Origin: an uncultured Candidatus Saccharibacteria bacterium
GTDB taxonomy: Bacteria; Patescibacteriota; Saccharimonadia; Saccharimonadales; CAIOMD01
DNA: 64,000 nucleotides
Direction of reading: 5' to 3'
Assembly: GCA_963716565.1 (NCBI GenBank)
Contig: OY970318.1
Span: forward strand, 385,934 to 449,933
A model generated the notes under the pieces. The model did no database searches, was not told where the DNA came from, and was given only the letters and a program-made list of their open reading frames with translations. The position numbers and the translations under genes are program-made. Of the stretch, positions 14,094 through 62,807 are shown one piece after another. Position 1 is the first letter of the stretch, and every line of letters starts with the position of its first letter.

Positions 14094-14191
14094 AAGTTAT
14101 CAAACCTCTCTTAAAAAGTTTAAGCTTTTGTTAGCTTAGTATCACTACGTTGCTATATTGTACCTTATCCAACCCTATTTCGAAATAATGT

Positions 14192-15807: not shown

Positions 15808-15846
15808 GCTAGTAATTATACTTCTTTTAAGGACAGCTCGCCAAAG

Positions 15847-16626: not shown

Positions 16627-16635
16627 TAAAACTCC

Positions 16636-17349: not shown

Positions 17350-17362
17350 TAGCCAAAAACCC

Positions 17363-18179: not shown

Positions 18180-18230
18180 TCGCTTATCCTCCTATTTATA
18201 ATTTTACATTTAAGTAGATTATCCATGGTT

Positions 18231-18935: not shown

Positions 18936-18964
18936 CGGGTCATTTAGTTCGCTAAAACCATTGC

Positions 18965-20062: not shown

Positions 20063-20235
20063 CAAAACCAGCTACAACAGATTGGCATTGATGAGTCCGA
20101 TTAGCCTTAGCCGGATATGGATTAAAGCCCTTATCTTTTAACGCCTGCAGTTTGCGCAGTCGTTCATCCCTTAACTCTTTTAGTGTAGCCATAACTTAAA
20201 AACTAGTATAACAAATAATGTCTGGGTGGGTTATG

Positions 20236-41723: not shown

Positions 41724-44700
41724 TTATTCAAAAACAAAGTAATTAAATTTATACACTGCCTGCTCTAGCGGAGATTGTTTTAGGTAAATGAAGAACTTAT
41801 CTTGAGTAGCGTCTGCGGAATAACGCAAACCAGCTGCTTCTGCATTGCTAGGAGTTAGGATTACTTTTGGATTCTTATTGAATTGCTTATTAAATACCAA
41901 TTCTGCAAATGCCTCATTAACCGCCGTACCCTCCCCCGTTGTAACGGTAATCGTTCCGCCTGTATCATTGCCCATCACTTCAGTTATAGCTCCCTCTCCA
42001 GCGGCGATACCTGGAGTAACGGTTGGCGTATCACCAGCCGAGATAATGTGACCGTTTACAGTAATATTGCCCACACTTAGATTGTCTTTAACTACTACTG
42101 AGCCTTCAAAGATAGCTTGGTCGGTAACGGTTAGACTAGCTACGTTAACTGTATTAACTTGTAAGTGATTTAGCTCAACATCACCGGAGGCGCTTAATAA
42201 GCTCTGAACCGTGGCTAGACCTTCTGATACTAATGATATTTCGGTATTTAAATCATCTATCTGACTAGTGTTTACAGCAATTTCTGCCTGTTGTTCTTGG
42301 ATGCCCTTAATAACTATCGGAATAAGACCTTCATACTTGATGTTATTTATCTCTCCATTTTTCCAGCCGACTATTTCTGGGAATAGTTCGTTTACTTCTT
42401 CGGCAATTAGTCCGTAGTCGTGTATCCCGCCATCGGCAGCCAAAGTATTGCTAGACGCCTTCCAGTCAAAACTGACCGGTCTTAACTGATCTATGGCCGA
42501 CAAGGCACTATCTAGATTTTGAACGTTTTCTTTGTACTTGATAGACGACAACGAGCAACTGGCGCCACGGGTTATTTCGTAGTTAGTGGTTTCCCAGCAC
42601 ATGTAATAACCACTCGAGCCACTGGGTAGATAGTCCATGAAGTAGTGAGGGTCAGGACTTCCCGAGTCAAATTCCATCATCGGGGTGGCAAGATCCTCTG
42701 GGAATATACTAAATAACGTGCCACCCTTCCATAGCTGGAATGAATGATTGCCGGTTCCGGCCGGGCCGAATTGCATTTGGGCATTAGTGTCATCAATAAA
42801 TATACTGCCCTGAGTACTAAGCCCAGCAGTGGCAGACAGATAGCCATAAATTGTTGCAGGGCCATTAACTACCAGATAGTCATTCATGGTTGCAGTACCA
42901 TTAACGACCAAGTCGTTGCCTACGGTTGTGGTGGTTTCGCCAACGGTGAGAAGTGGGGTGCCAAAAGCATCTACTACTTCTAGAACACCTTTAACGCGTA
43001 AAGCATTACTTGAATAATCACCTATGATTGTTGATGCAAATTCAGCTGATGGGTCGCTAGTTGCAGCAGCAGGACCGCCAGCGATAGCCGTGGGGTCACT
43101 AGTGCTAGCTGAAGGACTACTAGTACTAGCCGAGGGATCGCTGACGGTGGCAGTTGGGCTGCCACAATAAAGACCACAGCCAACGATATCGCCTTGAGAA
43201 TCGAGCTTAGCTAAGAAGATATTGTAGTTATAGTTGTTGTCAAAACTATCAGTGCCACCCGTAATTGCATAACCACCATCGGCAGTTTGAATTATATAAT
43301 AAGTCGTTTCGTATCCGCCGCCGCCAAAGGTTGTATCCCAAGAAAGATTGCCACTGCCATCAAACTTAGCTATATAGGAGTCGCCGCTAGTATTATAAGT
43401 AACACCCGTAACGGCAAATCCAAACGCGCCGCCACCATCATCAGTCTGCGTCAAAGAGTACCCTTCATCATAGTCTCCGATTCCTCCGTCCCAAGTTTTA
43501 TCCCAAGAAATGTTACCACTGCCGTCGAACTTGGCTATAAACATATCTCCATCGCTATCTTCTAATTCGGTATAGCCAGTTATGGCGTAGCCGCCATCAG
43601 CAGCCTGAACGACTTGATACCCATAATCGAATCCAGAACCTCCCCAGATGGTACTCCAAGAAAGATTGCCACTACCATCGAACTTGGCTATGTAGGCTTC
43701 TTCATCACCGCTGCCATAACTATCGGTTTCGCCAGTTATGGCATAGCCACTATCAGCAGTCTGGATTATTGAGGCGCTATCATCATATTCGGTACCGCCC
43801 CAAATTAGGTCCCAAGAAAGATTGCCACCACCATCGTATTTAGCAATGAATGCATCACAATTTACACTATAACTGCAAGTATCGCCAGTGAGTGCATATC
43901 CGCCGTCAGCGGTTTGAACTATCGAATCACCACCATCATACTCGGTACCACCCCAAAGTACATCCCAAGAAAGATTGCCGCTGCTGTCGTATTTAGCAAC
44001 GAACGCATCATAATAACCACTGCCGTAACTTCTGGTATAACCACTTACTACGTAACCACCGTCAGCAGTTTGAACTATTGATTGACCAATATCGCTGTTT
44101 GCTCCGCCCCAAGTCTTAGCCCAAGATAAATTAAGATCACTGTCATATTTAAGTATGACCATGTCTTCGCTACCGCTGCCATAGCTGCTGGTGTAACCAG
44201 TTACTGCATAGCCACCGTCAGCAGTTTGTACCACAGTATGACCATAATCGGCATCATAACTATTGTAATCCCCCCACACCACCACACTACTCATATAACT
44301 ATCAAAGGAATCTTCGTTAGTAACAGTTACTTGCATATTAGTAGTGTCGGCGTTTAGTAGGCCAACGTTAGAGCTGTTCTGGACAACAAAGGCCGAGTTG
44401 GCATCGGACTCAACTGTAGCATTGCCATTTACAAAGGTGTCTTGGTTGAGGTTTATCTGGGTAGCGTTGGTAGTACCAATGTTTAGAGCGGCAGCCGTAT
44501 TGGCGTCTAGCAGCGGAGTTAACAAGCTGGTGCCCAGTATGCCGGTGCCAGATATGTTCATGTGGCCAACTTGTTGGGTGCCGGGAGTGCTCGCTTGCAG
44601 CTCAACATTGCTACCACCACCAGCTCCCTCTAACAAATCCTTATTAATAGTCCCGTTATAAAAGTACAGGTTGGTGCCATTCCACCATAAATCACCACTA

Positions 44701-47700
44701 TTAGGAGCAGCTGGGTTAACACCGCCAGCTGAAGCCGTCACGTTTAATGAAGCCTCTGATGTAGTAGCGGCAGCCACTTGCAAACGAGCCGTTGGGGCAG
44801 CTATTCCTACTCCCACATAACCATTGTTCAATATAGTCATAGCCGTAGTCGCACCGGCGTCGCCGACTTTGAATTGTAAGTTGGCGTTAGTCAGGGTGTT
44901 GCCGCCAGACGTAGTACCTTGTAGAACTAAAGTACCGTTAGCAGCTGTTGAACCGTAGACGGTTGGCGTGGTAGTAGAAGTAGCAAAGACTGGGTTGGCT
45001 ACAGTGCTAATCGTTACGGTGTCAGTAGCTCCGGCTACGGTAGTGATGTTAGTACCTTGAGCTATGGTAATAGTGTCAGTGTCGGTAATAGATTGGGGGG
45101 TACCACTGCTACCGGCTAGGGTTAAGGAAGTTATACCACCGCCGGCGCCAAGGCATGAGCCCCAGCTAGGAGCCGCACTAGTATTGCTGACTAGGCATTG
45201 GCCAGTAGTGCCGGCAGCCGTAGCAGCAACTGCGCTGGTACCGTTACCGTAAAGTACGCCATATTGAGTTAAGGTGGTTGCACCAGTACCGCCCAAACTA
45301 ACACCAACCGTGCTAGTTGTGCCCAGTACACCAGCAGCTGTATTAGTGACTATGCCGGCAGTGTTAAGGGCAGAAAATGTTATTGTTCCAGAACTAGTAA
45401 TGCCAGCAGCTGCAGCAATTTGACCGCTAGTATTTACCTGGAATAAATCGCCGCTACCAACAGTTAGTAAGGCCAAAGGCGAAGCGTCGCCGATGCCCAC
45501 ATTGCCACTGCTGTCTACAACTAGCCTGTCATTAGTTCCCAAACCCGTAGTAGAAATCTTAAATTTATCACTGTCACTATCATCTACGCCGACAGTAAAT
45601 AAATTGGTGCCATCCGCTAGTTCAAAGCCAATCTGAGCATCATAGTCGCCAGCATTAGTATTAGACACCGTAATCTGGGTATTGGCCGCCGTGGCACTCA
45701 TAACTTCTAGTTTTTGGTCGGGCGAAGAATCGCCGATGCCAACATTGCCGCTGGTGCCTATTATCGTCATCCTTTGGGCTATTCCGCTCTCTACTATTGA
45801 GAAACTAGCCCCGCTCGGAGCTGATTCATAGTGCCACTTATTGGCTCCGTTTTCGGCGAAATATTGCATGGCGTACCAGCCTAATGGAGTATCAATTGTA
45901 AAGGCCGCATTTGCCCCAACCGCCGACACCTCTAGCTGGGTGGCCGGTGCCGCCGTCCCTACTCCTACATAACCATTGTTTAGGATGGTCATAGCCGTAG
46001 TGACGCCAGCGTTACCGACTTTGAATTGTAGGTTGGCGTTGGTTAGGGTGTTACCGCCAGACGTAGTACCTTGTAGAACTAAAGTACCGTTAGCAGCTGT
46101 TGAACCGTAAACGGTTGGGGTAGTTGTGGATGTGGCGAAAGTTGGGTTGTCGACAGTGCTAATCGTTACAGTGTCAGTAGCTCCAGCTACGGTAGTGATG
46201 TTAGTACCTTGAGCTATGGTAATAGTGTCAGTGTCGGTAATAGATTGGGGGGTGCCACTGCTACCGGCTAGGGTTAAGGAGTTCATGCCACTGCCACCTA
46301 CTCCACAAGCTCCCCAACTAGGCGCGGCTCCAGTAGTGCCAATTAGACATTGGCCAGTCGCACCAGCGGCTGTAGCTTGGATAGCGCTAGTAGTGTTACC
46401 GTACAGAACGCCGTATTGAGTGAAGGTAGCGGCACCAGTACCACCGTTGGATACATCTACAGTAGCCACTGTACCAATGACCCCAGCTGCGGTGTTAGTG
46501 ACTATCCCAGCAGTAGATAGGCCATTGACGGTTAGGCTACTAGCCGTTAAGCCGCCATTGAAAGCGGAAGCTGTAGAAGTATTAGCCCCTCTACCAGTAA
46601 CGTCAGCTAGGTCGTCGGCTTCGGCAGTCAGGTAGCTGCCAGCTGGTTGTTTGTTATTGAAGATATTCCAATCGGTGTCGCTTAAAGCACCAGTGGTAGC
46701 AGCCGAAGCTAGAGCTAAGCTGAGTTGTTGGGTGCTTAAGCCCAGTCCGTTAGCGGTACCTAGGGTGACGGCACTATGTAAGTCGCTAGTTAAAGCTACT
46801 ACGCCAGTAGCGGCTGGTAGGGTTAGAGCGTAGTTGTTAGCTGAGGTGTTAGCGGTAGCAATAGTAGTAACGCCAGTGGAAGTACCTTTCATGGCTAACA
46901 TAGAGTTGTCGAAGGTCTTGAGAGCGGTAACGCTTTGGGCAGTACCAAGTAGCATATCCCCTACACTCCAGCTGCGGTTAGCACTCAAGTCATAGCTGGT
47001 ACCGTTAATACTGAGGGTTCGGGAAGTGGGAACACCACCTAGGCCACCAAGTGAAAGGGCTGACCAACTAGGAATGTTAGTGTTAATACCATCGCCTATG
47101 GAAGTTAGAACGTAAGTATCGGTGGTAGTGTTGCCGCCTAGTCTAGTTGGTGTGCCAGCTAGGCCGCCGTAGATGAGGTCGCCCAGGGTGGACATAGGGT
47201 TAAACATACTAGCTCCGCCAGCACAGGCTCCCCAAGTGGGAGTGGCGTTAGAACCAGACAACAAACATAGTCCAGCTGTGCCAGTACCGGCTAGTACCTG
47301 CATTTGGGTAGCGTTAGTCCAAACAATACCGCCATTGCTAGCTGTTAGGTTGGCGTTAGTACCGCCATTAGCCAGTGGAACAGTAGCTACCGTACCCAGT
47401 ACACCGGCAGCGGTGTTAGTAACTATGCCGGCGGTAAACAGGTTGTTGACGGTTAGGCTAGTAGTAGTTAGGCCACTAGTGAATGATGGGTTGCCAGTAA
47501 CAGTTTCATTCTGGTTGAGATTGAAGTAGTTATTGCTGGCAGCCGACCAAATAGGATCGGTTTCGGCAGTTAGATAGCCAGACAGGTTGATGTTTGGGAC
47601 ATCAATTACATCACCGCTATTGCCAGTTGTAACGATCATTTGGTATTCATCGCCATCGTAGAAGTACAGCTGGTTGGTTTGGTTGTCGACGTAGATTTGG

Positions 47701-48134
47701 CCAATGCTAGGACTGGTTGGAGCATCGCCGGGAGTGATTACGACTGAACCATTGACCTGGAGGTGGCCGTTAATGTCTAGTCGGCTAATTTGGCCAAGCA
47801 AGGAGTTAAGGTCAATACCAGAACCGTCAAGCGACAAAGACACCAGGGTGTAGGTATCGCCTTGAGCTGTATCCCCTGTTGGGGGCTTTCGTAACTGGCT
47901 GAATATGGCAACTAGAATGATGATTAACAAACAGGTCAGCAAACCATAAACCATCATCCAGGTTCGGCGCTTTTTAGATTGGTAGCCGGGATAAGGTTGT
48001 GATGGGGCTGGTGTTACTGGTGCTACTGGGGAGGTGGTGCTGTTTTCTAGCACGCTGGGCTGGGGCACAACAATGCCGTCTGACATGGGGCTGATGGTTG
48101 GTGGAGTTGGGGTTGGCGTAATGTCTGGGTTCAT
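41724..48134 (-). CDS. giant fibre protein G2 (2136 aa): TM anchor, tail-fibre-like repeats, 7-blade SBBP beta-propeller, S74 chaperone domain (variant B), C-terminal beta module
   Basis: Starts 24 nt upstream of G1. N-terminal ~660 aa are identical to G3. An internal ~1.15-kb duplication (..ITSLTLAGSSGTPQSITDTDTITIAQGTNITTVAGATDTVTISTV..) is present. Seven YDxxGNLSWxxxWGG / QTADGGYAxTG blades. SSIKYKENVQNLDSALSAIDQLRPVSFDWK..YGLIAEEVNELFPEIV. Confidence 0.8.
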   Translation of the reverse strand: MNPDITPTPTPPTISPMSDGIVVPQPSVLENSTTSPVAPVTPAPSQPYPGYQSKKRRTWMMVYGLLTCLLIIILVAIFSQLRKPPTGDTAQGDTYTLVSLSLDGSGIDLNSLLGQISRLDINGHLQVNGSVVITPGDAPTSPSIGQIYVDNQTNQLYFYDGDEYQMIVTTGNSGDVIDVPNINLSGYLTAETDPIWSAASNNYFNLNQNETVTGNPSFTSGLTTTSLTVNNLFTAGIVTNTAAGVLGTVATVPLANGGTNANLTASNGGIVWTNATQMQVLAGTGTAGLCLLSGSNATPTWGACAGGASMFNPMSTLGDLIYGGLAGTPTRLGGNTTTDTYVLTSIGDGINTNIPSWSALSLGGLGGVPTSRTLSINGTSYDLSANRSWSVGDMLLGTAQSVTALKTFDNSMLAMKGTSTGVTTIATANTSANNYALTLPAATGVVALTSDLHSAVTLGTANGLGLSTQQLSLALASAATTGALSDTDWNIFNNKQPAGSYLTAEADDLADVTGRGANTSTASAFNGGLTASSLTVNGLSTAGIVTNTAAGVIGTVATVDVSNGGTGAATFTQYGVLYGNTTSAIQATAAGATGQCLIGTTGAAPSWGACGVGGSGMNSLTLAGSSGTPQSITDTDTITIAQGTNITTVAGATDTVTISTVDNPTFATSTTTPTVYGSTAANGTLVLQGTTSGGNTLTNANLQFKVGNAGVTTAMTILNNGYVGVGTAAPATQLEVSAVGANAAFTIDTPLGWYAMQYFAENGANKWHYESAPSGASFSIVESGIAQRMTIIGTSGNVGIGDSSPDQKLEVMSATAANTQITVSNTNAGDYDAQIGFELADGTNLFTVGVDDSDSDKFKISTTGLGTNDRLVVDSSGNVGIGDASPLALLTVGSGDLFQVNTSGQIAAAAGITSSGTITFSALNTAGIVTNTAAGVLGTTSTVGVSLGGTGATTLTQYGVLYGNGTSAVAATAAGTTGQCLVSNTSAAPSWGSCLGAGGGITSLTLAGSSGTPQSITDTDTITIAQGTNITTVAGATDTVTISTVANPVFATSTTTPTVYGSTAANGTLVLQGTTSGGNTLTNANLQFKVGDAGATTAMTILNNGYVGVGIAAPTARLQVAAATTSEASLNVTASAGGVNPAAPNSGDLWWNGTNLYFYNGTINKDLLEGAGGGSNVELQASTPGTQQVGHMNISGTGILGTSLLTPLLDANTAAALNIGTTNATQINLNQDTFVNGNATVESDANSAFVVQNSSNVGLLNADTTNMQVTVTNEDSFDSYMSSVVVWGDYNSYDADYGHTVVQTADGGYAVTGYTSSYGSGSEDMVILKYDSDLNLSWAKTWGGANSDIGQSIVQTADGGYVVSGYTRSYGSGYYDAFVAKYDSSGNLSWDVLWGGTEYDGGDSIVQTADGGYALTGDTCSYSVNCDAFIAKYDGGGNLSWDLIWGGTEYDDSASIIQTADSGYAITGETDSYGSGDEEAYIAKFDGSGNLSWSTIWGGSGFDYGYQVVQAADGGYAITGYTELEDSDGDMFIAKFDGSGNISWDKTWDGGIGDYDEGYSLTQTDDGGGAFGFAVTGVTYNTSGDSYIAKFDGSGNLSWDTTFGGGGYETTYYIIQTADGGYAITGGTDSFDNNYNYNIFLAKLDSQGDIVGCGLYCGSPTATVSDPSASTSSPSASTSDPTAIAGGPAAATSDPSAEFASTIIGDYSSNALRVKGVLEVVDAFGTPLLTVGETTTTVGNDLVVNGTATMNDYLVVNGPATIYGYLSATAGLSTQGSIFIDDTNAQMQFGPAGTGNHSFQLWKGGTLFSIFPEDLATPMMEFDSGSPDPHYFMDYLPSGSSGYYMCWETTNYEITRGASCSLSSIKYKENVQNLDSALSAIDQLRPVSFDWKASSNTLAADGGIHDYGLIAEEVNELFPEIVGWKNGEINNIKYEGLIPIVIKGIQEQQAEIAVNTSQIDDLNTEISLVSEGLATVQSLLSASGDVELNHLQVNTVNVASLTVTDQAIFEGSVVVKDNLSVGNITVNGHIISAGDTPTVTPGIAAGEGAITEVMGNDTGGTITVTTGEGTAVNEAFAELVFNKQFNKNPKVILTPSNAEAAGLRYSADATQDKFFIYLKQSPLEQAVYKFNYFVFE
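42250..42548 (-). other. peptidase S74 intramolecular-chaperone domain (variant B) of G2; the equivalent in G3 is at ~49087-49385
   Basis: SSIKYK (S-x4-K) followed by ..DYGLIAEEVNELFPEIVGWKNGEINNIKYEGLIPIVIKGIQEQQAEIA. Confidence 0.6.
43165..44270 (-). other. seven-bladed SBBP-type (PF06739-like) beta-propeller of G2
   Basis: Repeats of ..GxSIVQTADGGYAITGYTxSYGSG..DAFIAKYDGSGNLSWDxxWGG.. ending in GDIVGCGLYCGS. Confidence 0.6.
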
Positions 48135-48136
48135 GC

Positions 48137-48325
48137 CTACATTCCCCTCTTAGTTAGGCCTGAGGATAAAGAAGCCCTGCTACCAAAAACCACAAAAAGC
48201 ACCGAACTCATCTTAGCGAGGGTGCACTTAACAATTTGGCTGGTGTTTTTTTGCCTTGTCATACCTTTGGTTTTATTTTTGTTTAGTACGGTTTGTCTTG
48301 ATTTGCTTTTTACTGTTTTGGACAA
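48137..48325 (-). repeat. ~190-bp leader immediately upstream of the G2 ATG, identical to 55118-55306 upstream of G3
   Basis: The identical TTG-initiated 62-codon ORF is called at both sites. The leader ends in AAGAGGGGAATGTAGGC-ATG (GAGGGG Shine-Dalgarno ~9 nt before the ATG). Confidence 0.7.
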
Positions 48326-48335
48326 ACTAAGGCTA

Positions 48336-48364
48336 TTGTGGGCCCACTACCCTCTCAATTCAAG
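48336..48364 (-). promoter_or_regulatory. candidate sigma70-like promoter for G2 (TTGAAT - 17 nt - CACAAT), minus strand; the equivalent for G3 is at 55316-55344 (TTGAAG - 17 nt - CACAAT)
   Basis: The motif and 17-nt spacing are conserved between the two otherwise diverged inter-gene spacers, right at the 5' edge of the identical leader. Confidence 0.25.
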
Positions 48365-48560
48365 ATAGAAAATGCAAATTATGTGTTCAGTAAAAGTTTG
48401 GTAAAAAACTAATGTTTTTAGTGCTGAATAGTAGTCTTTAATACTACATTACAGACATTGATAGTAAAACTTTCTAGCTTAGGCCTTTTGTTTTTTGTTG
48501 TAATAATTATTACAGATTCCAAAAAACAAATTATTTATCCACAGCTTGTTTATGTTTTTC

Positions 48561-51500
48561 TTACTCAATTATAAAGTAGTTAAACTCGTACGTAACTTGC
48601 TCTAGCGGCGATTGCTCTATAAGACGTATCAAGAATTTGTCCACTGTTCCGTCGGCGTAGTAAAGCAAATCAGACGTTTCAATATTGCTTGGAGTTAGTA
48701 CTACCCTGGGTTGTCTGCTAAATGGTTTGCTAAAAACAAGCTCCACCAAATCGTTAGTCGTAGTACCCTCCCCCGTTGTAACGGTAATCGTTCCGCCTGT
48801 ATCATTGCCCATCACTTCAGTTATAGCTCCCTCTCCAGCGGCGATACCTGGAGTAACGGTTGGCGTATCACCAGCCGAGATAATGTGACCGTTTACAGTA
48901 ATATTGCCCACACTTAGATTGTCTTTAACTACTACTGAGCCTTCAAAGATAGCTTGGTCGGTAACGGTTAGACTAGCTACGTTAACTGTATTAACTTGTA
49001 AGTGATTTAGCTCAACATCACCGGAGGCGCTTAATAAGCTCTGAACCGTGGCTAGACCTTCTGATACTAATGATATTTCGGTATTTAAATCATCTATCTG
49101 ACTAGTGTTTACAGCAATTTCTGCCTGTTGTTCTTGGATGCCCTTAATAACTATCGGAATAAGACCTTCATACTTGATGTTATTTATCTCTCCATTTTTC
49201 CAGCCGACTATTTCTGGGAATAGTTCGTTTACTTCTTCGGCAATTAGTCCGTAGTCGTGTATCCCGCCATCGGCAGCCAAAGTATTGCTAGACGCCTTCC
49301 AGTCAAAACTGACCGGTCTTAACTGATCTATGGCCGACAAGGCACTATCTAGATTTTGAACGTTTTCTTTGTACTTGATAGACGACAACGAGCAACTGGC
49401 GCCACGGGTTATTTCGTAGTTAGTGGTTTCCCAGCACATGTAATAACCACTCGAGCCACTGGGTACGTGATCCATGTAGTAATGAGGCGTGGGGCTTCCC
49501 GAGTCAAATTCCATCATTGGACTGGCAAGATCTTCTCCGGTTATATTGAATAACGTGCCACCCTTCCATAGCTGGAATGAATGATTGCCGGTTCCGGCCG
49601 GGCCGAATTGCATTTGGGCATTAGTGTTATCAATAAATATACTGCCCTGCGTGCTAGGCCCAGCAGTGGCAGACAGATAGCCATAAATTGTTGCAGGGCC
49701 ATTAACTACCAGATAGTCATTCATGGTTGCAGTACCATTAACGACCAAGTCGTTGCCTACGGTTGTGGTGGTTTCGCCAACGGTGAGGAGTGGAAGGCCT
49801 GGATCGTCTAATGTTGCCATTTCAAACCCCGCCATCATCATACCGCCACCTCCGACCGGAGGTAATCCTGATGCTACTTCTAAGACACCTTTAACACGTA
49901 GCGCATCAATCTGGTAACCGCCTGCGATAGAAACGGAGTAGGCCGATGGGTCACTAGTCGTAGCAGCAGGATTCGCAACTATAGCTGTTTGGCTCGTTGT
50001 GATATACGCTGGGCTATAGGCACTCATGCTGGGGTCGCGAATTGTTACGCTTGGAGTGTAACAATGCGCACCACAACCAACAATATTACCCTGAAAATCG
50101 AATTTGGCTAAAATCATATTAATATTAAGATCAATGGGCTGGCTGTCACCAACAACCATAAAGCCGCCACTAGTAATCTTAACCATATCCCATCCTATGC
50201 CCCAATCGTATGGGAGGCCCGTAGTTACAAAGTTTTCTACCCACAAGAAATTGCCGCTGCTATCAAATTTGGCTAGCGACAGCTCGTAATCAGAGGTAGA
50301 ATTCAGCATGGTGCCCGCTATAACATAGCCACCATCGGCAGTTTGAACAATTGCATTGCTTTCGTCGATGTCGTTATAGGGACTGCTTAAAGTCCTATCC
50401 CACATCAGATTGCCACTGCTATCAAATTTAGCTATGAACATGTCATCGTCAGCGCCATATACATCATCGTTTACATCTGTTGTGCCGGTAATAGCATAGC
50501 CCCCATCAGCCGTTTCAATTATGGAACTACCGTATTCGTACGTATATCCTCCGCTGTCCCACTGCCTGGATAGCAAAAGATTGCCACTGGCATCAATCTT
50601 CATAAAAAACATGGCCCAGCCACCGCCACTACCATCGCCGCTACCCGTGATTAAATAACCACCGTCAGAAGTCTGAGCCATCTTTGTTTTATAGCCAAAA
50701 CTCAGATCACTATCACCGTACGTTTTAGTCCACAAAAGATTGCCACTGCTGTCGTAATTAGCCAGAAAATAGTTACTGTAGCTGGTACCGGCATAAAAGC
50801 TATTAGTTTGACCACCAACCATATAATCACCGTCGACAGTTTCAAAAACACTAAAGCCCCTTTCTTGATGCTGGTCACCATCGCCAGCCCATATTGCATC
50901 CCATAACAAATTACCACTACCATCATATTTAGCAATAAACATATCTTCACAATTGCCAGGGGAGTAGGAACTACAAGTAGTAACTTCAAAACTTCCGCTC
51001 TCTCCGGTTATTACGTAACCGCCGTCACTAGTTTGTATTATAGAATACCCTATATCTGATCTCGTACCACCCCAAGTTCTATCCCATTGCAGATTTAAGT
51101 TACTATCATATTTGGCTATAAGCGCATTATTAGAATCAGGATAGCCCGCAGCAAAATATTCTGTATAACCGGTAACGGCGTAACCGCCGTCGGCAGTTTG
51201 AACAACCGAGTGACCTCTTTCGCTTTTAAAGCCATCGTATACCCTATCTCCCCACACCACCACACTACTCATATAACTATCAAAGGAATCTTCGTTAGTA
51301 ACAGTTACTTGCATATTAGTAGTGTCGGCGTTTAGTAGGCCAACGTTAGAGCTGTTCTGGACAACAAAGGCCGAGTTGGCATCGGACTCAACTGTAGCAT
51401 TGCCATTTACAAAGGTGTCTTGGTTGAGGTTTATCTGGGTAGCGTTGGTAGTACCAATGTTTAGAGCGGCAGCCGTATTGGCGTCTAGCAGCGGAGTTAA

Positions 51501-54500
51501 CAAGCTGGTGCCCAGTATGCCGGTGCCAGATATGTTCATGTGGCCAACTTGTTGGGTGCCGGGGGTATATAATTGTAAGTCAATATTATTTTCGGTAATT
51601 CCCGCCAGCAAATCTGTATTAATAGTCCCGTTATAAAAGTACAGGTTGGTGCCATTCCACCATAAATCACCACTATTAGGAGCAGCTGGGTTAACACCGC
51701 CAGCTGAAGCCGTCACGTTTAATGAAGCCTCTGATGTAGTAGCGGCAGCCACTTGCAAACGAGCCGTTGGGGCAGCTATTCCTACTCCCACATAACCATT
51801 GTTCAATATAGTCATAGCCGTAGTCGCACCGGCGTCGCCGACTTTGAATTGTAAGTTGGCGTTAGTCAGGGTGTTGCCGCCAGACGTAGTACCTTGTAGA
51901 ACTAAAGTACCGTTAGCAGCTGTTGAACCGTAGACGGTTGGCGTGGTAGTAGAAGTAGCAAAGACTGGGTTGGCTACAGTGCTAATCGTTACGGTGTCAG
52001 TAGCTCCGGCTACGGTAGTGATGTTAGTACCTTGAGCTATGGTAATAGTGTCAGTGTCGGTAATAGATTGGGGGGTACCACTGCTACCGGCTAGGGTTAG
52101 CACGGTCATGCCGGCACCAGCGCCCGCACAGGAACCCCAAGCGGGAGCAGCACCGGTTACGGCTATAAAACATTGCCCTGTTATTCCGGCGCTCGTGGCA
52201 CCCACGGCATTAATACCCCTACCGTACAACACACCATATTGGGTTAAAGTAGTCTCGCCGGTACCACCGTTAGCCACGCCCACAGCAGCCACAGTGCCTA
52301 ACACCCCAGCAGCTGTGTTGGTGACAACGCCAGACGTAGAGAGTCCGCTAAGAGTAATCGTACCAGAAGATGTAATGCCGGCCGCTGTAGCAATTTGACC
52401 ACTTGTATTAACCCTAAACAGATCGCCGCTACCAACAGTTAATAAAGCCAAGGGCGAGGTGTCGCCAATACCTATACTACCAGTACTAATCACTACCAAC
52501 CTGTCATTCGTACCTAGCGCAGTGGTCGAGATCTTGAATTTATCGGTATCGCTATCGTCTACACCAATGGTAAAAGCGTTAGTGCCATCAGCTAGTTCAA
52601 AGCCAAATTGGCTATCATAGCTACCAGCATTGGTATTAGACACCGTAATCTGGGTATTAGCCGCCGTGGCACTCATAACTTCCAGCTTTTGGTCGGGCGA
52701 AGAATTACTAATGCCCACATTGCCGCTGGTAACTAGTACTGTCATTCTTTGAGTGGCGATGCTGCTTTCTACAATCGAGAAGCTGGCTCCCCCAGGCGCC
52801 GATTCATTGTGCCACTTATTGGCTCCGTTTTCGGCGAAATATTGCGTAGCAGAGTAGCCCAATGGGGCATTTACTGTAGATCCTACATTTGCCCCAGTTC
52901 CAGACACCTCTAGCTGGGTGGCCGGTGCCGCCGTCCCTACCCCCACATAGCCATTGTTCCGTATAGTCATAGCCGTAGTCGCACCAGCGTCACCAACTTT
53001 GAATACCAAGTTAGCGTTTGTAGCAGTATTACCAGCTACCGCCGAGTTGCCTTGCAGGGTTAGAGTACCGTTAGCGGCTGTTGAGCCGTAAACGGTTGGG
53101 GTAGTTGTGGATGTGGCGAAAGTTGGGTTGTCGACAGTGCTAATCGTTACAGTGTCAGTAGCTCCAGCTACGGTAGTGATGTTAGTACCTTGAGCTATGG
53201 TAATAGTGTCAGTGTCGGTAATAGATTGGGGGGTGCCACTGCTACCGGCTAGGGTTAAGGAGTTCATGCCACTGCCACCTACTCCACAAGCTCCCCAGCT
53301 AGGTGCGGCTCCAGTAGTGCCAATTAGACATTGGCCAGTCGCACCAGCGGCTGTAGCTTGGATAGCGCTAGTAGTATTGCCGTACAGAACGCCGTATTGA
53401 GCGAAGGTAGCGGCACCAGTACCACCGTTAACTACGTCTACGGTAGCTACGGTACCAATTACTCCAGCCGCCGTGTTAGTGACTATGCCAGCAGTAGATA
53501 GGTTGTTAACCGTTAGGCTACTAGCCGTTAGGCCACCATTGAAGGCGGAAGCTGTAGAAGTATTAGCCCCTCTACCAGTAACGTCAGCTAGGTCGTCGGC
53601 TTCGGCAGTCAGGTAGCTGCCAGCTGGTTGTTTGTTATTGAAGATATTCCAATCGGTGTCGCTTAAAGCACCAGTGGTAGCAGCCGAAGCTAGAGCTAAG
53701 CTGAGTTGTTGGGTGCTTAAGCCCAGTCCGTTAGCGGTACCTAGGGTGACGGCACTATGTAAGTCGCTAGTTAAAGCTACTACGCCAGTAGCGGCTGGTA
53801 GGGTTAGAGTGTAGTTGTTAGCTGAGGTGTTAGCCGTAGCAATAGTAGTAACGCCAGTGGAAGTACCTTTCATGGCTAACATAGAGTTGTCGAAGGTCTT
53901 GAGAGCGGTAACGCTTTGGGCAGTACCAAGTAGCATATCCCCTACACTCCAGCTGCGGTTAGCACTCAAGTCATAGCTGGTACCGTTAATACTGAGGGTT
54001 CGGGAAGTGGGAACACCACCTAGGCCACCAAGTGAAAGGGCTGACCAACTAGGAATGTTAGTGTTAATACCATCGCCTATGGAAGTTAGAACGTAAGTAT
54101 CGGTGGTAGTGTTGCCGCCTAGTCTAGTTGGTGTGCCAGCTAGGCCGCCGTAGATGAGGTCGCCCAGGGTGGACATAGGGTTAAACATACTAGCTCCGCC
54201 AGCACAGGCTCCCCAAGTGGGAGTGGCGTTAGAACCAGACAACAAACATAGTCCAGCTGTGCCAGTACCGGCTAGTACCTGCATTTGGGTAGCGTTAGTC
54301 CAAACAATACCGCCATTGCTAGCTGTTAGGTTGGCGTTAGTACCGCCATTAGCCAGTGGAACAGTAGCTACCGTACCCAGTACACCGGCAGCGGTGTTAG
54401 TAACTATGCCGGCGGTAAACAGGTTGTTGACGGTTAGGCTAGTAGTAGTTAGGCCACTAGTGAATGATGGGTTGCCAGTAACAGTTTCATTCTGGTTGAG

Positions 54501-55115
54501 ATTGAAGTAGTTATTGCTGGCAGCCGACCAAATAGGATCGGTTTCGGCAGTTAGATAGCCAGACAGGTTGATGTTTGGGACATCAATTACATCACCGCTA
54601 TTGCCAGTTGTAACGATCATTTGGTATTCATCGCCATCGTAGAAGTACAGCTGGTTGGTTTGGTTGTCGACGTAGATTTGGCCAATGCTAGGACTGGTTG
54701 GAGCATCGCCGGGAGTGATTACGACTGAACCATTGACCTGGAGGTGGCCGTTAATGTCTAGTCGGCTAATTTGGCCAAGCAAGGAGTTAAGGTCAATACC
54801 AGAACCGTCAAGCGACAAAGACACCAGGGTGTAGGTATCGCCTTGAGCTGTATCCCCTGTTGGGGGCTTTCGTAACTGGCTGAATATGGCAACTAGAATG
54901 ATGATTAACAAACAGGTCAGCAAACCATAAACCATCATCCAGGTTCGGCGCTTTTTAGATTGGTAGCCGGGATAAGGTTGTGATGGGGCTGGTGTTACTG
55001 GTGCTACTGGGGAGGTGGTGCTGTTTTCTAGCACGCTGGGCTGGGGCACAACAATGCCGTCTGACATGGGGCTGATGGTTGGTGGAGTTGGGGTTGGCGT
55101 AATGTCTGGGTTCAT
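48561..55115 (-). CDS. giant fibre protein G3 (2184 aa): paralog of G2 with a diverged SBBP propeller and partly diverged C-terminal module
   Basis: Same N-terminus, TM and first ~660 aa as G2 (DNA identical at a 6981-bp offset). Blades of the form YDGSGNLLWDxxW with longer inserts. Same variant-B S74 domain. C-terminal ..FSKPFSRQPRVVLTPSNIETSDLLYYADGTVDKFLIRLIEQSPLEQVTYEFNYFIIE. Confidence 0.8.
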   Translation of the reverse strand: MNPDITPTPTPPTISPMSDGIVVPQPSVLENSTTSPVAPVTPAPSQPYPGYQSKKRRTWMMVYGLLTCLLIIILVAIFSQLRKPPTGDTAQGDTYTLVSLSLDGSGIDLNSLLGQISRLDINGHLQVNGSVVITPGDAPTSPSIGQIYVDNQTNQLYFYDGDEYQMIVTTGNSGDVIDVPNINLSGYLTAETDPIWSAASNNYFNLNQNETVTGNPSFTSGLTTTSLTVNNLFTAGIVTNTAAGVLGTVATVPLANGGTNANLTASNGGIVWTNATQMQVLAGTGTAGLCLLSGSNATPTWGACAGGASMFNPMSTLGDLIYGGLAGTPTRLGGNTTTDTYVLTSIGDGINTNIPSWSALSLGGLGGVPTSRTLSINGTSYDLSANRSWSVGDMLLGTAQSVTALKTFDNSMLAMKGTSTGVTTIATANTSANNYTLTLPAATGVVALTSDLHSAVTLGTANGLGLSTQQLSLALASAATTGALSDTDWNIFNNKQPAGSYLTAEADDLADVTGRGANTSTASAFNGGLTASSLTVNNLSTAGIVTNTAAGVIGTVATVDVVNGGTGAATFAQYGVLYGNTTSAIQATAAGATGQCLIGTTGAAPSWGACGVGGSGMNSLTLAGSSGTPQSITDTDTITIAQGTNITTVAGATDTVTISTVDNPTFATSTTTPTVYGSTAANGTLTLQGNSAVAGNTATNANLVFKVGDAGATTAMTIRNNGYVGVGTAAPATQLEVSGTGANVGSTVNAPLGYSATQYFAENGANKWHNESAPGGASFSIVESSIATQRMTVLVTSGNVGISNSSPDQKLEVMSATAANTQITVSNTNAGSYDSQFGFELADGTNAFTIGVDDSDTDKFKISTTALGTNDRLVVISTGSIGIGDTSPLALLTVGSGDLFRVNTSGQIATAAGITSSGTITLSGLSTSGVVTNTAAGVLGTVAAVGVANGGTGETTLTQYGVLYGRGINAVGATSAGITGQCFIAVTGAAPAWGSCAGAGAGMTVLTLAGSSGTPQSITDTDTITIAQGTNITTVAGATDTVTISTVANPVFATSTTTPTVYGSTAANGTLVLQGTTSGGNTLTNANLQFKVGDAGATTAMTILNNGYVGVGIAAPTARLQVAAATTSEASLNVTASAGGVNPAAPNSGDLWWNGTNLYFYNGTINTDLLAGITENNIDLQLYTPGTQQVGHMNISGTGILGTSLLTPLLDANTAAALNIGTTNATQINLNQDTFVNGNATVESDANSAFVVQNSSNVGLLNADTTNMQVTVTNEDSFDSYMSSVVVWGDRVYDGFKSERGHSVVQTADGGYAVTGYTEYFAAGYPDSNNALIAKYDSNLNLQWDRTWGGTRSDIGYSIIQTSDGGYVITGESGSFEVTTCSSYSPGNCEDMFIAKYDGSGNLLWDAIWAGDGDQHQERGFSVFETVDGDYMVGGQTNSFYAGTSYSNYFLANYDSSGNLLWTKTYGDSDLSFGYKTKMAQTSDGGYLITGSGDGSGGGWAMFFMKIDASGNLLLSRQWDSGGYTYEYGSSIIETADGGYAITGTTDVNDDVYGADDDMFIAKFDSSGNLMWDRTLSSPYNDIDESNAIVQTADGGYVIAGTMLNSTSDYELSLAKFDSSGNFLWVENFVTTGLPYDWGIGWDMVKITSGGFMVVGDSQPIDLNINMILAKFDFQGNIVGCGAHCYTPSVTIRDPSMSAYSPAYITTSQTAIVANPAATTSDPSAYSVSIAGGYQIDALRVKGVLEVASGLPPVGGGGMMMAGFEMATLDDPGLPLLTVGETTTTVGNDLVVNGTATMNDYLVVNGPATIYGYLSATAGPSTQGSIFIDNTNAQMQFGPAGTGNHSFQLWKGGTLFNITGEDLASPMMEFDSGSPTPHYYMDHVPSGSSGYYMCWETTNYEITRGASCSLSSIKYKENVQNLDSALSAIDQLRPVSFDWKASSNTLAADGGIHDYGLIAEEVNELFPEIVGWKNGEINNIKYEGLIPIVIKGIQEQQAEIAVNTSQIDDLNTEISLVSEGLATVQSLLSASGDVELNHLQVNTVNVASLTVTDQAIFEGSVVVKDNLSVGNITVNGHIISAGDTPTVTPGIAAGEGAITEVMGNDTGGTITVTTGEGTTTNDLVELVFSKPFSRQPRVVLTPSNIETSDLLYYADGTVDKFLIRLIEQSPLEQVTYEFNYFIIE
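50065..51255 (-). other. SBBP-type beta-propeller of G3 (diverged from G2)
   Basis: VVQTADGGYAVTGYT..ALIAKYDSNLNLQWDRTWGG.. through ..FQGNIVGCGAHCYTPS. Confidence 0.55.
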
Positions 55116-55117
55116 GC

Positions 55118-55306
55118 CTACATTCCCCTCTTAGTTAGGCCTGAGGATAAAGAAGCCCTGCTACCAAAAACCACAAAAAGCACCGAACTCATCTTAGCGA
55201 GGGTGCACTTAACAATTTGGCTGGTGTTTTTTTGCCTTGTCATACCTTTGGTTTTATTTTTGTTTAGTACGGTTTGTCTTGATTTGCTTTTTACTGTTTT
55301 GGACAA
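55118..55306 (-). repeat. second copy of the ~190-bp leader (upstream of G3)
   Basis: Identical to 48137-48325. Confidence 0.7.
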
Positions 55307-55539
55307 ACTAAGGCTATTGTGGGCCCACTACCTCTGAACTTCAAGACATAAAATGTAAAAAAAGTATTCATTCGAAGCTTGGTAAAATACGGTTGTCTCA
55401 CAGTACAAATAGTAGTCATTAATACTACAGTTAAGACAGGGGGTTGCGCTATGCCCCATCTTTATAACTAGAAATATGTTGTAATTACCAATACAGCTGC
55501 TAGCGCTACTCAATACTTATCCACAACTAAAATTTTATT

Positions 55540-58500
55540 TTATTCAATTACTACGTAATCAAAGATGTAGGTAGTATTTTCTTGTGGCAATTGTGTGAGG
55601 TTAATAGTAAAGCCGTCTGATGAAGCACCTCTAAAGATGTTCAATTCGGCGGCATTGGCATCACCTGCCGTTAATATAACTCTTGGCTGCTTGCCAAATG
55701 GTCTATTAAATATCAACTCTACCAATTTATCGGCCAATACATTCTTGCCCGTAGTAATTGTTATGGTTCCGCTGGTGTCATTGCCTAGTACTTCGGTTAC
55801 GGCTCCTTCGCCGGCGGCGACACCAGCTACTATTGTAGGCGTCTCACCAGCGGAGATGATATGCCCATTAACACTCAAGTTAGCCACCTGAACATTACCC
55901 GTTACGGTTAAGTTACCGGTGATAGTAGTTAGATTAAGATCAGAGTTGTATTGTAGATTGCTGCTTAGAGTAGCCACTCTGCTACTTAGTTCTTCTATGG
56001 TTTGTTGTTGTTGTTGAATAGCGGTAGCTAAGTATGGGGTTAGACCAGCGTAAGAGATAGACTTAATGCCCTGGGCGTCGGTATAGACTAAGTCTGGGAA
56101 GAGTTGTTCGTACTCTTGAGCGATGAAGCCAACGTGTAAGGTGTCAGTCTCGGCATCGGCTAGCATGTGGTAAGACACTGTTCTAAGGCCTAGTATCTGA
56201 TTTAGGGCATCACCATAGGTTGTGATGTCTTTCTTGAGTCTTTCGTCGGAAGTACAGGTTATACCGCCAGCCGTATTGGGGGTAACCGTACAGGTGCCAC
56301 CAGCGTTTTCAAAGCGGGCTACGGCAGTGCCATCGGCTACTGAAGCACTGCCAACATGTAACAGATAGCCTGGGGAGGTGTTGGAGATACCCAGATTACC
56401 GGCAGAATTAACGCGAAGTCGTTCTGCGTTATTTGAATATATTGCCGTATACGGTGATCCGCTGTTTGTGCTTACATAAACTCCGCCATATATCGTGCTA
56501 AGACCACTATCATACGCAAGCCAACTAGACGTTCCCGTAGATGATATCACTGCAAGATAGCTCGCATTTCTATTAACACTTTCAACCACAACTGTTGCGT
56601 TAGAAGCAACGTCTCCTGTGTTTGCAGTATTATAGACGTGCAATGAACGCCCTAACGTTGTTATTGGGCTGCCTGTTCCTATCCCCATGTTTCCGCTACT
56701 ATCAATCACCAGCCTGTCATTAGTGCCTAATCCCGTAGTAGAGATCTTGAACTTATCACTATCACTGTCGTCTACACCCATAGTAAATAGGTTCGTGCCG
56801 TCAGTTAGCTCAAAGCCAATTTGGCTATCGTAATCACCAGCGTTAGTATTAGATACTGTTATCTGAGTTAAGGCCGTGCCAGTGTTCATTACTTCTAGCT
56901 TTTGGTCAGGAGAGATGTCGCCGATGCCAAGGTAACCAGCAGTAGTCACCCTAAAGCCTACATTCCACGACGACACTGTTGAGCCAGCGGCTACGCCTGA
57001 GCTATACAAAAGACTAAAGTAATCGCTATTTTTTTGAAGTTGGTAGTTAGAACCAGCATCAGAACTAATCCAGTTTGTACCGTTAAAATACGAATCGAAC
57101 GCCATAGCCATGTTGTCATGCGACTGATTAAGCTGTTGATAAAGCGGATAGGTGTCGGCGGATGTGAATATCTTAATATGAGGTCCAGCTGCTGCACTTG
57201 AGTCTGTACCAGAAAGCGTCAATTTACTATCCGGGCTACTTGCCCCAATACCAATATTACCAGCGAAGTAGTTATTGTTAGCTGAGCTATTGTAAATGCC
57301 AAAGCTGCCGCTTGGTGCCGTTGATGTGCCCATTAACAAATACGTGTTGTTGGTCGCGCCAGCAAGCGAATTAATATTTATGCCAACTTTATTGGTGTTA
57401 GCTTGTACGCCATCAATATAAATTCCCTTCCCAGTCGTCACCGTGCCAGCAACAGTTCCTTGATAAATGTACAGCGGTACTAGTTCGGTGGTAGCCGTAC
57501 TAGCACTAGTGTTAGTGTATACTTCTATGCCTCGCATACTAGAAATTGCACCGCCACCAGTTAGATTATTACCAACAATAAAACGAGAGTTTCTAAACAC
57601 TGCTTGATTGGATGCGGAGCTAGCCGTCAAGGTACGGGCTACCACTAATGACATATCTGCTGTATCGGCAGTATTAACTTGAGTCTGCGTAACCCCAATA
57701 CCAACAGTTGGACCAGATGCAGCAACTTGATCGCTAACATTAAGTCTATAAGAAGGGCTAGCAGTGCCTATGCCAACATTACCTAGGTCATTAACTACCA
57801 ATGCAACTGCGTTGCTAGAATCCCTAGCAATTAGAATGGCTGGCAGTTTATCCGGGCTAGCGTCGTTGGCATTATCACTAAAGGCAGTATTTACAGTTAA
57901 ACTGGTGTTAGAAGCAATGGCGGTGACTGTTCTGGTTTCGCCAGTTACGGTTATTCGATCACCAACTACTAGTTCGGTAGTAAATAAGGTACCTACGCCT
58001 GTTACGGTGGTAGAAGCAGTTGGATCAATACTACCCGTTAAAACACTTGTAGCTGCACCAGTAAAACGACCAGATCCAGCAACATCAAGTTTGGTCAAAG
58101 GCGTAGTAGTGTTAACGCCTACATTCCCAGTAAAATAGCTAGTTCCAGTTATTGTGTTAACGTTAAAGTAAGAAGCCCCAAGTCTATTCACCACATTTAG
58201 AATTGTTCCGTCGCTTGCAGTAGACGAAAGCTGCCCTATGGTTACGTCTTTATCATTCACCAGCAAGGCCCCCCTCGTTCTGCCAGCACCAGCTTTCATA
58301 ACTTCGAAAATACCAGTTGGGTTAGTAGTGCCGATGCCCACATTACCGGAACTATCAATTCGCAAGCGCTCTGATTTTGCTGTAGCACCAATTGCAGTGG
58401 TAGAAAATGTAAAATATGAGCCCCTAGCCGACTCGGTGAAGTTTTCTGCTGCAAACATTTTAATTGCGGCAGCAGTTTCCGTTCCCCAAGTTGACACCCC

Positions 58501-62478: not shown

Positions 62479-62631
62479 CGCCAGCCCTACCCTTTCACCT
62501 TAGTCGAAGAGATCAAATTATATATCATTTGCCTTTTGGTTTGTTTACCCCTCATACAATCTGTATACATTTTCTCTGCATTTACTCTCTATTACAAGAT
62601 AAAAATACACTTTTTTTGTTCAATAAAATAA

Positions 62632-62645
62632 CCCTCGAAAGAGGG
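62632..62645 (-). terminator. putative intrinsic terminator for the upstream minus-strand gene (hairpin CCCTC-TTTC-GAGGG followed by TTATTTTATTG on the minus strand)
   Basis: Plus strand reads aaCCCTCgaaaGAGGGcatttt. A T-rich tract follows on the minus strand, ~165 nt downstream of the 62808 stop. Confidence 0.4.
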
Positions 62646-62807
62646 CATTTTAACCAATTATACGTAGTTTAAGCAACAACGGTACAGATTAAAAAGTTCA
62701 TATAATTATAGATACCATCAGTTGAAATCGTTGTATTAATTATAACTAATACAGATTGCGCATATGCTTTATCCACACATCATTGCATTAAACTAAATAA
62801 GATATGT

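Follow-up and report, generated by a model that had tools for sequence, protein, structure and literature searches.

The 64,000-nucleotide stretch of DNA analysed here (the window) carries four consecutive giant genes, G1 to G4, which probably constitute a tandem array of paralogous surface fibres that has become mosaic through recombination and presents different tips on partly homogenised scaffolds. All coordinates are positions in the window, all four genes lie on the minus strand, and their structure is read from the assembled consensus sequence alone. The genes are intact open reading frames (ORFs) of 6-7 kb each, spanning 35772-62478. The array measures 26.7 kb, which represents 3.3% of a 799-kb (799,209-bp) Saccharibacteria chromosome.

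35772-41699, minus strand: G1, 1975 aa
41724-48134, minus strand: G2, 2136 aa
48561-55115, minus strand: G3, 2184 aa
55540-62478, minus strand: G4, 2312 aa, GTG start

The four proteins have a common order of parts: a short, positively charged N-terminal tail, predicted to be cytoplasmic, a transmembrane (TM) helix, a conserved, membrane-proximal neck, a modular stalk, a distal module or head, a Peptidase_S74 domain (S74; Pfam PF13884) and a last domain. The tail comprises 45-60 residues, ends in basic residues and is followed by one helix with a Kyte-Doolittle mean of 2.8-3.0, which indicates a putative N-in membrane anchor. A conserved region of ~130 aa comes directly after the helix in all four proteins. 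The stalk modules occur in varied copy numbers in proteins of other bacteria of the Candidate Phyla Radiation (CPR). Three of the anchors, placed by hydrophobicity, are the following.

41460-41528, minus strand: TM anchor of G1 (aa 58-80)
47895-47957, minus strand: TM anchor of G2 (aa 60-80)
62281-62343, minus strand: TM anchor of G4 (aa 46-66)

The mosaic was examined by self-BLAST, exact-match extension and a 100-bp identity profile. The four genes have in common DNA tracts of 0.13-1.8 kb in which only 0-7 positions differ, the blocks in between fall to 41-75% identity, and the profile swings between 100% and 41-75%. Exact or near-exact tracts join all six gene pairs, in differing combinations. 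An initial annotation of the locus had described such a mixture of identity and divergence, and the self-comparison returned the mosaic as described rather than uniform divergence. The main tracts are listed below; G2 and G4 have two shorter tracts in common.

46564-48351 = 53545-55332, minus strand: G2 = G3, 1788 bp with 2 mismatches, covering the first ~523 codons and the 217-bp leader
41926-42628 = 48763-49465, minus strand: G2 = G3, 703 bp, exact, covering S74 variant B and the following coiled-coil/beta-helix
42821-42950, minus strand: G2 = G3, 130 bp, exact
44272-44585 = 51250-51563, minus strand: G2 = G3, exact, lower edge at the N-terminal boundary of the propeller cassette
44642-45124 = 51617-52099, minus strand: G2 = G3, exact
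46105-46394, minus strand: G2 = G3, near-identical
40018-40895 = 53305-54182, minus strand: G1 = G3, 878 bp with 3 mismatches
40093-40574, minus strand: G1 = G4, 482 bp, exact, overlapping the G1 = G3 tract
40258-40895, minus strand: G1 = G2, 3 mismatches, overlapping the G1 = G3 tract
36173-36695 = 55869-56391, minus strand: G1 = G4, 523 bp with 1 mismatch, covering the neck, S74 variant A and a helix
53086-53861 = 60035-60810, minus strand: G3 = G4, 776 bp with 7 mismatches
40258-40522 = 46564-46828 = 53545-53809 = 60494-60758, minus strand: segment of 265 bp identical in G1-G4

G2 and G3 form the tandem duplication of ~6.98 kb that had been annotated, with an offset of 6981 bp in the 5' part, 6975-6978 bp in the middle and 6837 bp at the 3' end. 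The portion reported as identical between 46200 and 48325 is 98.7% identical, with 22 of its 27 mismatches in 46421-46563, and the longest exact run reaches 1497 bp (46855-48351 = 53836-55332). When the same G2/G3 mismatches were permuted 2000 times, the longest run averaged 46 bp and reached a maximum of 88 bp, compared with the 1497 bp observed. The S74 region at 41880-42990, also reported as identical, shows 93% identity overall and is exact only over the 703-bp and 130-bp tracts listed above. The variant-A block common to G1 and G4 was found as annotated, together with post-TM regions at 92% identity (40911-41378 vs 61738-62205). The segment recurring in four genes, estimated at ~180 bp, proved to be 265 bp long. 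Internal repeats are present as well. In G2 and G3 the proposed ~1.15-kb duplication has a period of 1152-1158 bp, of which only 340-490 bp are detectable at 84-85%, with a 68-bp exact core; in G1 the three copies are confirmed, but as cores of 200-320 bp at 89-95% spaced by 882 and 744 bp instead of ~0.8-kb repeats. The annotated features are real, several of their extents and identities had been overstated, and some coordinate pairs were displaced by 1-4 bp.

Between these tracts lie the diverged blocks.

42951-44270, minus strand: diverged head cassette of G2 (aa 1289-1728; G3 ~49788-51249), 41-67% nucleotide identity, synonymous divergence (dS) saturated
45130-46100, minus strand: diverged stalk block of G2 vs G3, 60-88% nucleotide identity, dS saturated, nonsynonymous divergence (dN) 0.09-0.24
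46421-46563, minus strand: G2-private patch of 143 bp with 22 differences from G1 = G3 = G4

The head cassette is bordered on both sides by exact G2/G3 tracts. Part of the stalk block of G2 is nearer to G4 (87%) than to G3. The last ~75 codons of G2 and G3 show 51-64% nucleotide identity; the divergence of propeller regions and gene ends had been recognised before, the latter for ~60 codons.

A codon-wise comparison of G2 with G3 gives dS = 0 at aa 1-400, 451-500, 1051-1150, 1202-1251 and 1860-2059, and dS above 1 or incalculable at aa 751-800, 851-1000, most of 1302-1709 and from 2060 to the end. The 217-bp leaders of both genes are identical (48135-48351 = 55116-55332). In the module present in all four genes, variable sites are arranged blockwise: G1 and G2 agree against G3 and G4 (pattern aabb), followed by the 22 G2-private sites (abaa), the 265 bp that are all identical and a G4-private block (aaab). 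In one tract G1 is nearer to G3 than G2 is, and in the next tract G2 equals G3. G1 combines its first ~90 nucleotides, as in G2/G3, with the neck and S74-A of G4 and a C-terminal domain of its own, and G4 combines S74-A with a C-terminal domain of the G2/G3 type. Tract edges match domain edges, and the start of the G2/G3 head cassette lies no more than a few codons from where the propeller begins. These patterns support recombination or gene conversion among the paralogs, as the initial annotation had proposed, as the only explanation of the mosaic at the sequence level, because one and the same gene pair has tracts with dS = 0, a non-coding leader among them, directly beside blocks in which dS is saturated, because neighbouring tracts group the four genes differently, and because modules are distributed combinatorially. 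It is the zero divergence, and only this, that points to exchange which may be ongoing. The distal intergenic spacers, including the region upstream of G4, remain diverged though alignable, which argues for old duplicates with later conversion tracts and not for a very recent duplication.

A scenario in which the whole gene was duplicated recently and the heads and some stalk blocks then changed rapidly under diversifying selection, without recombination, would agree with the collinearity of G2 and G3 at the ~6.98-kb offset, and heads are the expected target of such selection. Protein selection, however, cannot produce saturated dS next to a dS of exactly 0. In the diverged stalk block, dN/dS lies well under 1. 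Unrelated propellers (48-49%) are as near to the G2 head as the G3 head is (46%), and the tracts G1 = G3 and G1 = G4 run counter to the pairing of G2 with G3. Differences in protein-level constraint are rejected for the same reason, since zero synonymous change adjoins saturation and the leader is identical too. Selection without recombination is thus extremely improbable.

A further sign of recombination in this family comes from a related contig (L001), which carries at the orthologous position a 3295-aa gene (P0003) with about nine tandem stalk repeats of 939 bp (313 aa) at 95-99% identity (11399-19953 of that contig). Neighbouring repeats are most alike, and the contig ends inside or just after the array. 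These repeats, found by blastn and beyond the TRF period limit of 500, bear the signature of unequal crossing-over.

The distal modules of the four proteins are the following.

36840-37721, minus strand: Kelch propeller of G1 (aa 1327-1620), Pfam E 1e-44 to 1e-48
43140-44282, minus strand: seven-bladed beta-propeller of G2 (aa 1285-1665), from AlphaFold2 (AF2) and Foldseek, with Pfam DUF5122 above threshold
50040-51260, minus strand: propeller head of G3, homologous to that of G2, dS-saturated
56404-59931, minus strand: GNVGIG-type beta-helix repeat region of G4, ~1176 aa

The AF2 model of the G2 head has a pLDDT of 88.7 and 28 strands. Foldseek matched it to the CylK propeller with a TM-score of 0.85, and to seven-bladed lectins too. 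The DUF5122-type propeller repeat family comprises 87,367 proteins at E up to 0.001. The heads of G1 and G4 had been called unrelated, and they are: Kelch is identified by Pfam in the former, and the latter has the long GNVGIG-repeat region. A propeller of the G2-head type with its linker was also found in a 634-aa protein (P0255) with a prepilin-type N-terminus (GFTIVELLIV...), at 42% identity over 403 aa, so that a type IV pilin scaffold is predicted to display this head module as well.

The initial annotation held that exchange varies the distal domains while anchor, stalk and chaperone are kept. The first part of this view finds no support, as it is the heads that homogenisation has passed over. 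The second is too simple: anchor, stalk and chaperone each occur in two variants, the stalk block of ~1 kb at 45130-46100 is dS-saturated, and the domain after S74 varies. Because the G2 and G3 propellers (~46% aa identity) are no closer to each other than to propellers of unrelated proteins (48-49%), they would be old or imported cassettes and not products of exchange within the array.

Import is the core of another explanation, in which the divergent cassettes (heads, G2-private patch and stalk block) arrived by natural transformation or horizontal gene transfer and intragenomic conversion only homogenises. No closer donor for the G2-private patch exists within the window, where the best match is 86.5%, nor does the window offer a better one for the diverged stalk blocks. 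Foreign propellers, among them the pilin-fused P0255, resemble the propeller heads as much as these resemble each other. Natural competence, documented in Saccharibacteria (PMC10633639), could provide the route for cassette import. The data can be explained without import, however, by old divergence that has persisted between conversion tracts, and no near-identical foreign donor for imported cassettes was found in any database searched, so that import can be considered a possible but rather doubtful source of these cassettes.

Mosaic surface paralogs in a host-dependent organism with a reduced genome resemble the loci of Mycoplasma and Neisseria, and programmed variation has therefore to be considered, whether by silent cassettes (pilE/pilS, vlsE or MgPa type), by a diversity-generating retroelement or by an invertase/shufflon. 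For silent cassettes, the genes have the wrong structure: all four are full-length ORFs with starts and TM anchors, three of the four (G2, G3 and G4) each have their own upstream region, and the window holds no extra fragments. Inverted matches of at least 100 bp are absent from 35-63 kb, and no recombinase is encoded in the window. The window also encodes no reverse transcriptase, and substitutions in the variable patch are of all types and not adenine-specific. Programmed variation of any of these kinds is very unlikely.

It is well established that paralogous genes for surface proteins undergo gene conversion and that phage fibre genes are mosaic. The array resembles Neisseria pilE/pilS, Borrelia vlsE, Mycoplasma genitalium MgPa/MgPar and Helicobacter babA/babB in the non-reciprocal recombination among surface-protein paralogs, in the host-dependent life of the bacteria and in mosaics with sharp tract boundaries. 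In these known systems, one expression site is accompanied by silent partial cassettes and the exposed region is varied, whereas every copy in the array is a complete gene and recent conversion has affected the structural scaffold, not the tips.

The C-terminal regions of the four proteins contain the following domains.

36387-36554 (G1) and 56083-56250 (G4), minus strand: S74 variant A, SDERLK
42369-42548 (G2) and 49206-49385 (G3), minus strand: S74 variant B, SSIKYK
41727-42056 (G2), 48564-48893 (G3) and 55543-55869 (G4), minus strand: C-terminal H-lectin-like beta-sandwich
35775-36173, minus strand: phage-cement-like C-terminal domain of G1, Phage_cement_2, 25.2 bits against a gathering threshold of 24

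S74 was detected in all four proteins with 48.4-54.2 bits, compared with a gathering threshold of 22. The Ser-x4-Lys dyad spacing is kept in SDERLK (S1716 of G1, S2077 of G4) and in SSIKYK (S1863 of G2, S1911 of G3). Variant A aligns to T5 pb1 (6f45), and its motif lines up with the SSDRRIKK of pb1. Variant B aligns to a phage tail fibre (8jov) and weakly to the myelin regulatory factor MYRF (7dc3). For the C-terminal domain of G1, a phage minor capsid/cement protein (9gay) gave a further, weak match, and in another Saccharibacteria metagenome-assembled genome (MAG; L011) the ORF just upstream of parA terminates in a related domain, at 44% identity. The S74-B block together with ~80 residues of the would-be mature fibre tip (42210-42794, G2 aa 1781-1975) has its nearest phage matches in minor tail proteins of Streptomyces (139 records) and Arthrobacter (101 records) phages, at 32% identity and E 2e-14, in a phage database that is heavily biased towards actinophages. 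Actinobacteria are known hosts of cultivated Saccharibacteria.

Such matches could suggest that the genes are prophage or phage-derived tail-fibre genes and not cellular surface structures. Besides the affinity of S74-B to minor tail proteins of Streptomyces and Arthrobacter phages, PHROG tail-fibre matches cover C-terminal parts, S74-A is nearest to fibres of Pelagibacter and Synechococcus phages, and the C-terminal domain of G1 is phage-cement-like. The phage matches, however, extend over at most 23% of the query at 25-38% identity. Neither capsid, terminase, baseplate nor integrase genes were found in the 64 kb, and the flanks are housekeeping genes. The N-terminal TM anchors are not a virion attachment device, many Saccharibacteria hold giant ORFs upstream of parA, and the C-terminal domain is almost absent from IMG/VR. 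It is most improbable, therefore, that these are phage genes.

As cellular proteins, G1-G4 still have much in common with phage fibres and tailspikes such as K1F endosialidase and T5 pb1 (PF13884, MEROPS S74). They have S74 with its Ser-Lys spacing, the layout of propeller, stalk and chaperone known from endosialidase, and the mosaic module exchange well known for phage fibre genes. They differ in being chromosomal, membrane-anchored and 2000-2300 aa long, with no virion genes nearby. In Streptomyces phage Endor2, the S74 match corresponds to the last 189 aa of a 427-aa protein, whereas S74 is internal in G1-G4. The ICA domain of MYRF provides a cellular parallel, as MYRF is a membrane protein with S74-type, trimerisation-dependent self-cleavage. 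In MYRF, cleavage takes place on the N-terminal side of the TM segment and sets free a transcription factor; with the TM helix N-terminal in G1-G4, it would be the C-terminal fragment that departs, while the fibre remains anchored.

According to the proposed model, RecA-type homologous recombination between the tandem copies would recently have copied tracts of 0.13-1.8 kb, by non-reciprocal gene conversion, with unequal crossing-over accounting for the intragenic repeats. The leader, the N-terminal third, stalk modules and S74 blocks would be copied in this way, while the heads, one stalk block and the extreme 3' ends have stayed anciently diverged. The heads might escape by being too diverged to pair, or conversions there might be selected against. 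In the protein, S74 would drive trimerisation, template the folding of the upstream fibre and then cleave itself at the conserved Ser. Three N-terminal helices would then anchor the resulting trimeric fibre in the membrane, and its distal part would be formed by the propeller or the beta-helix module. These modules are expected to bind ligands, probably on the surface of the host bacterium, and one locus would offer four specificities. The fibre analogy is based on K1F endosialidase, T5 pb1, MYRF and Bd3182 (a mosaic adhesive trimer, MAT; PMC10769870). All cultivated Saccharibacteria are obligate epibionts and depend on surface adhesins for growth (PMC10633639), so that the most economical function would be to recognise structures on the surface of host cells.

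Several points weigh against this interpretation. Trimerisation, autocleavage, surface display and host binding are read into G1-G4 by analogy. S74 is not located at the extreme C-terminus: 130-260 aa follow, including a confidently folded beta-sandwich of ~110 aa. Cleavage would discard this conserved lectin-like domain, which a simple model of a chaperone thrown away fails to explain. By sequence, the G2 stalk is without a relative in the PDB. Strain-level relatives are absent from the databases, and the clusters of all four proteins include no other full-length member. In 17 other parA-adjacent loci of Saccharibacteria, mostly from short-read MAGs, self-comparison revealed no high-identity paralog tracts. 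Lastly, the window contains consensus indel errors, with SecA split into four ORFs and a class II Asn/Asp-tRNA synthetase into two (breaks in 11654-14093 and 18231-20065, minus strand). With regard to cleavage, it might also release or cap a trimeric fragment that bears the lectin-like domain and serves a separate function.

The indel errors also bear on the possibility that the mosaic is an artefact of assembly or polishing, produced by mis-joined repeats, by strain alleles placed in tandem or by cross-polishing of paralogs. The breaks in SecA and the Asn/Asp-tRNA synthetase lie near A/T homopolymers, as is typical of an imperfect long-read consensus, and contig L001 ends inside its repeat array. 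Rather than pseudogenes, the splits most likely reflect indel errors in the consensus of a long-read assembly. This suggests that reads spanned the repeats, yet also that the sequence is imperfect. Homopolymers are ~3 times rarer in the giant genes, which may explain why their frames are intact. An artefact is difficult to reconcile with four ORFs that are intact over 6-7 kb each, and with copies that differ by dS-saturated cassettes, as distinct loci and not a duplicated consensus would. Each junction of stop, intergenic region and next gene is unique yet homologous. Polishing erases a few SNPs (single-nucleotide differences) but cannot turn 50-70% identity into kilobase-scale identity, and the tracts tie all six gene pairs in different combinations. 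The single 799-kb contig implies reads that span 1.8-kb repeats. An artefact is accordingly unlikely, and recombination within a genuine array of paralogs is the preferred reading.

The closest known parallel to such an array is provided by the MAT fibres of Bdellovibrio bacteriovorus, 21 paralogs of which 13 end in S74 with SDxxxK (Caulton et al. 2024, PMC10769870). They have a conserved cell-proximal region of ~130 aa, variable distal domains and surface display, and their beta-helix repeats carry the capping-loop motif VG.G...P...L; the authors proposed "tip swapping" among them (PMC10769870). G4 aa 1291-1393 (58300-58608) align to the MAT crystal structures 8OML, 8OL4, 8ON4 and 8OND with E 7e-10 to 2e-4, and the alignment takes in ...SGNVGIGT.P.... 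Both sets of proteins are cellular, non-viral, phage-tail-fibre-like and encoded by multiple paralogs in a bacterium living off other bacteria. The SDERLK of G1 and G4 fits the SDxxxK of MAT fibres, and the ~130-aa region after the TM helix may be paired, by description, with the beta-rich N-terminal domain of ~130 aa in MAT. The differences are also clear. G1-G4 have an uncleaved N-terminal TM anchor, whereas MAT fibres of the diderm Bdellovibrio have a cleaved signal peptide and a surface-binding domain. G1-G4 are about twice as long, with 130-260 aa after S74 that include a lectin-like or cement-like domain, and beta-propeller heads, tandem genes and kilobase-scale identical tracts set them apart as well. 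The sequence-level match comes from G4 only, and the G2 stalk gave none.

In the literature searched, no paper was found that ties S74, tail-fibre domains or MAT fibres to CPR bacteria or Saccharibacteria, and the literature found on MAT fibres was confined to Bdellovibrio-like predators. Some CPR proteins are already annotated as "tail fiber domain-containing" in databases. The N-terminal anchor alignment (A1) had no relative in 185,579 GTDB species genomes and only three short matches in JGI metagenomes, and no exact match to G2 was present in the contig index. Giant ORFs upstream of parA occur in other Saccharibacteria too, some with Kelch or S74. Many Saccharibacteria MAGs (loci L018, L021, L023, L024, L025, L006 and L012) have one or two ORFs of 1.5-2.3 thousand aa immediately upstream of parA, and in others (L004) the position is occupied by IleRS. 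The site upstream of parA appears to be a conserved place for giant surface-protein genes.

The array is flanked by a gene for a 287-aa membrane protein on one side and by parA on the other, ParA and ParB being encoded directly downstream. Beyond these lie LytR, RF1/PrmC, ProRS, RseP, UppS, RRF, EF-Ts, S2, SecA, SerRS, a sortase and a heliorhodopsin. The best relatives of ParA among the 185,579 species genomes are from Saccharimonadales/Saccharibacteria, at 56-62% identity. Given these relatives, the single 799-kb contig and the housekeeping flanks, the window is part of a Saccharibacteria (CPR/Patescibacteria) chromosome, one without a close sequenced relative. Two of the neighbouring genes are the following.

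62808-63671, minus strand: 287-aa membrane protein directly upstream of G4, 43% identical to a syntenic ORF in L001
17363-17992, minus strand: heliorhodopsin, Pfam E 5e-83, profile aligned only from position 43

The syntenic 287-aa ORF of L001 (9129-9992 of that contig) is likewise located directly upstream of the giant gene. From its conserved position, the membrane protein may act together with the fibres, as an accessory factor or a dedicated partner. A weak similarity (E 0.002) connects its exo-domain with the cement-like C-terminal domain of G1. The heliorhodopsin may be N-terminally truncated by a frameshift, and its presence suggests a light-exposed environmental habitat.

The stop of G2 is separated from the start of G1 by 24 bp, and the G2/G3 and G3/G4 spacers measure ~425 bp each. 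As judged from these arrangements, G1 is probably co-transcribed with G2, and G2 and G3 are probably co-regulated because their leader is identical. The regions upstream of G2, G3 and G4 (48135-48560, 55116-55539 and 62479-62807, minus strand) contain common short motifs right after the preceding stop, namely GTGTGGATAA, a GTAGT..ACTAC hairpin and TATCTTGAA, which are a possible candidate for a regulatory element. No Rfam matches were obtained across the window, and a promoter/terminator scan of the G3-G2 spacer reached background level only.

For host recognition and attachment by ultrasmall CPR/Patescibacteria, the literature has so far implicated type IV pili and a few adhesins (PMC10633639, PMC12206443). 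The locus provides a clean natural example of concerted evolution acting on a scaffold while the tips stay distinct. Such loci are prone to breaking or collapse in short-read MAGs and are probably under-counted. The likeness to MAT fibres suggests a common phage-derived toolkit, used by an obligate epibiont as well as by an obligate predator. Four MAT-related fibres with different tips, occupying 3.3% of the genome, represent a concrete candidate for a determinant of host specificity. More tentatively, epibiotic Saccharibacteria might possess receptor-binding fibres in the manner of phages: MAT-homologous, S74-matured, trimeric membrane fibres might set the host attachment range of the bacterium, and the array might shift this range by recombining tips (propellers, beta-helix and lectin-like C-terminal domains) with homogenised scaffolds.

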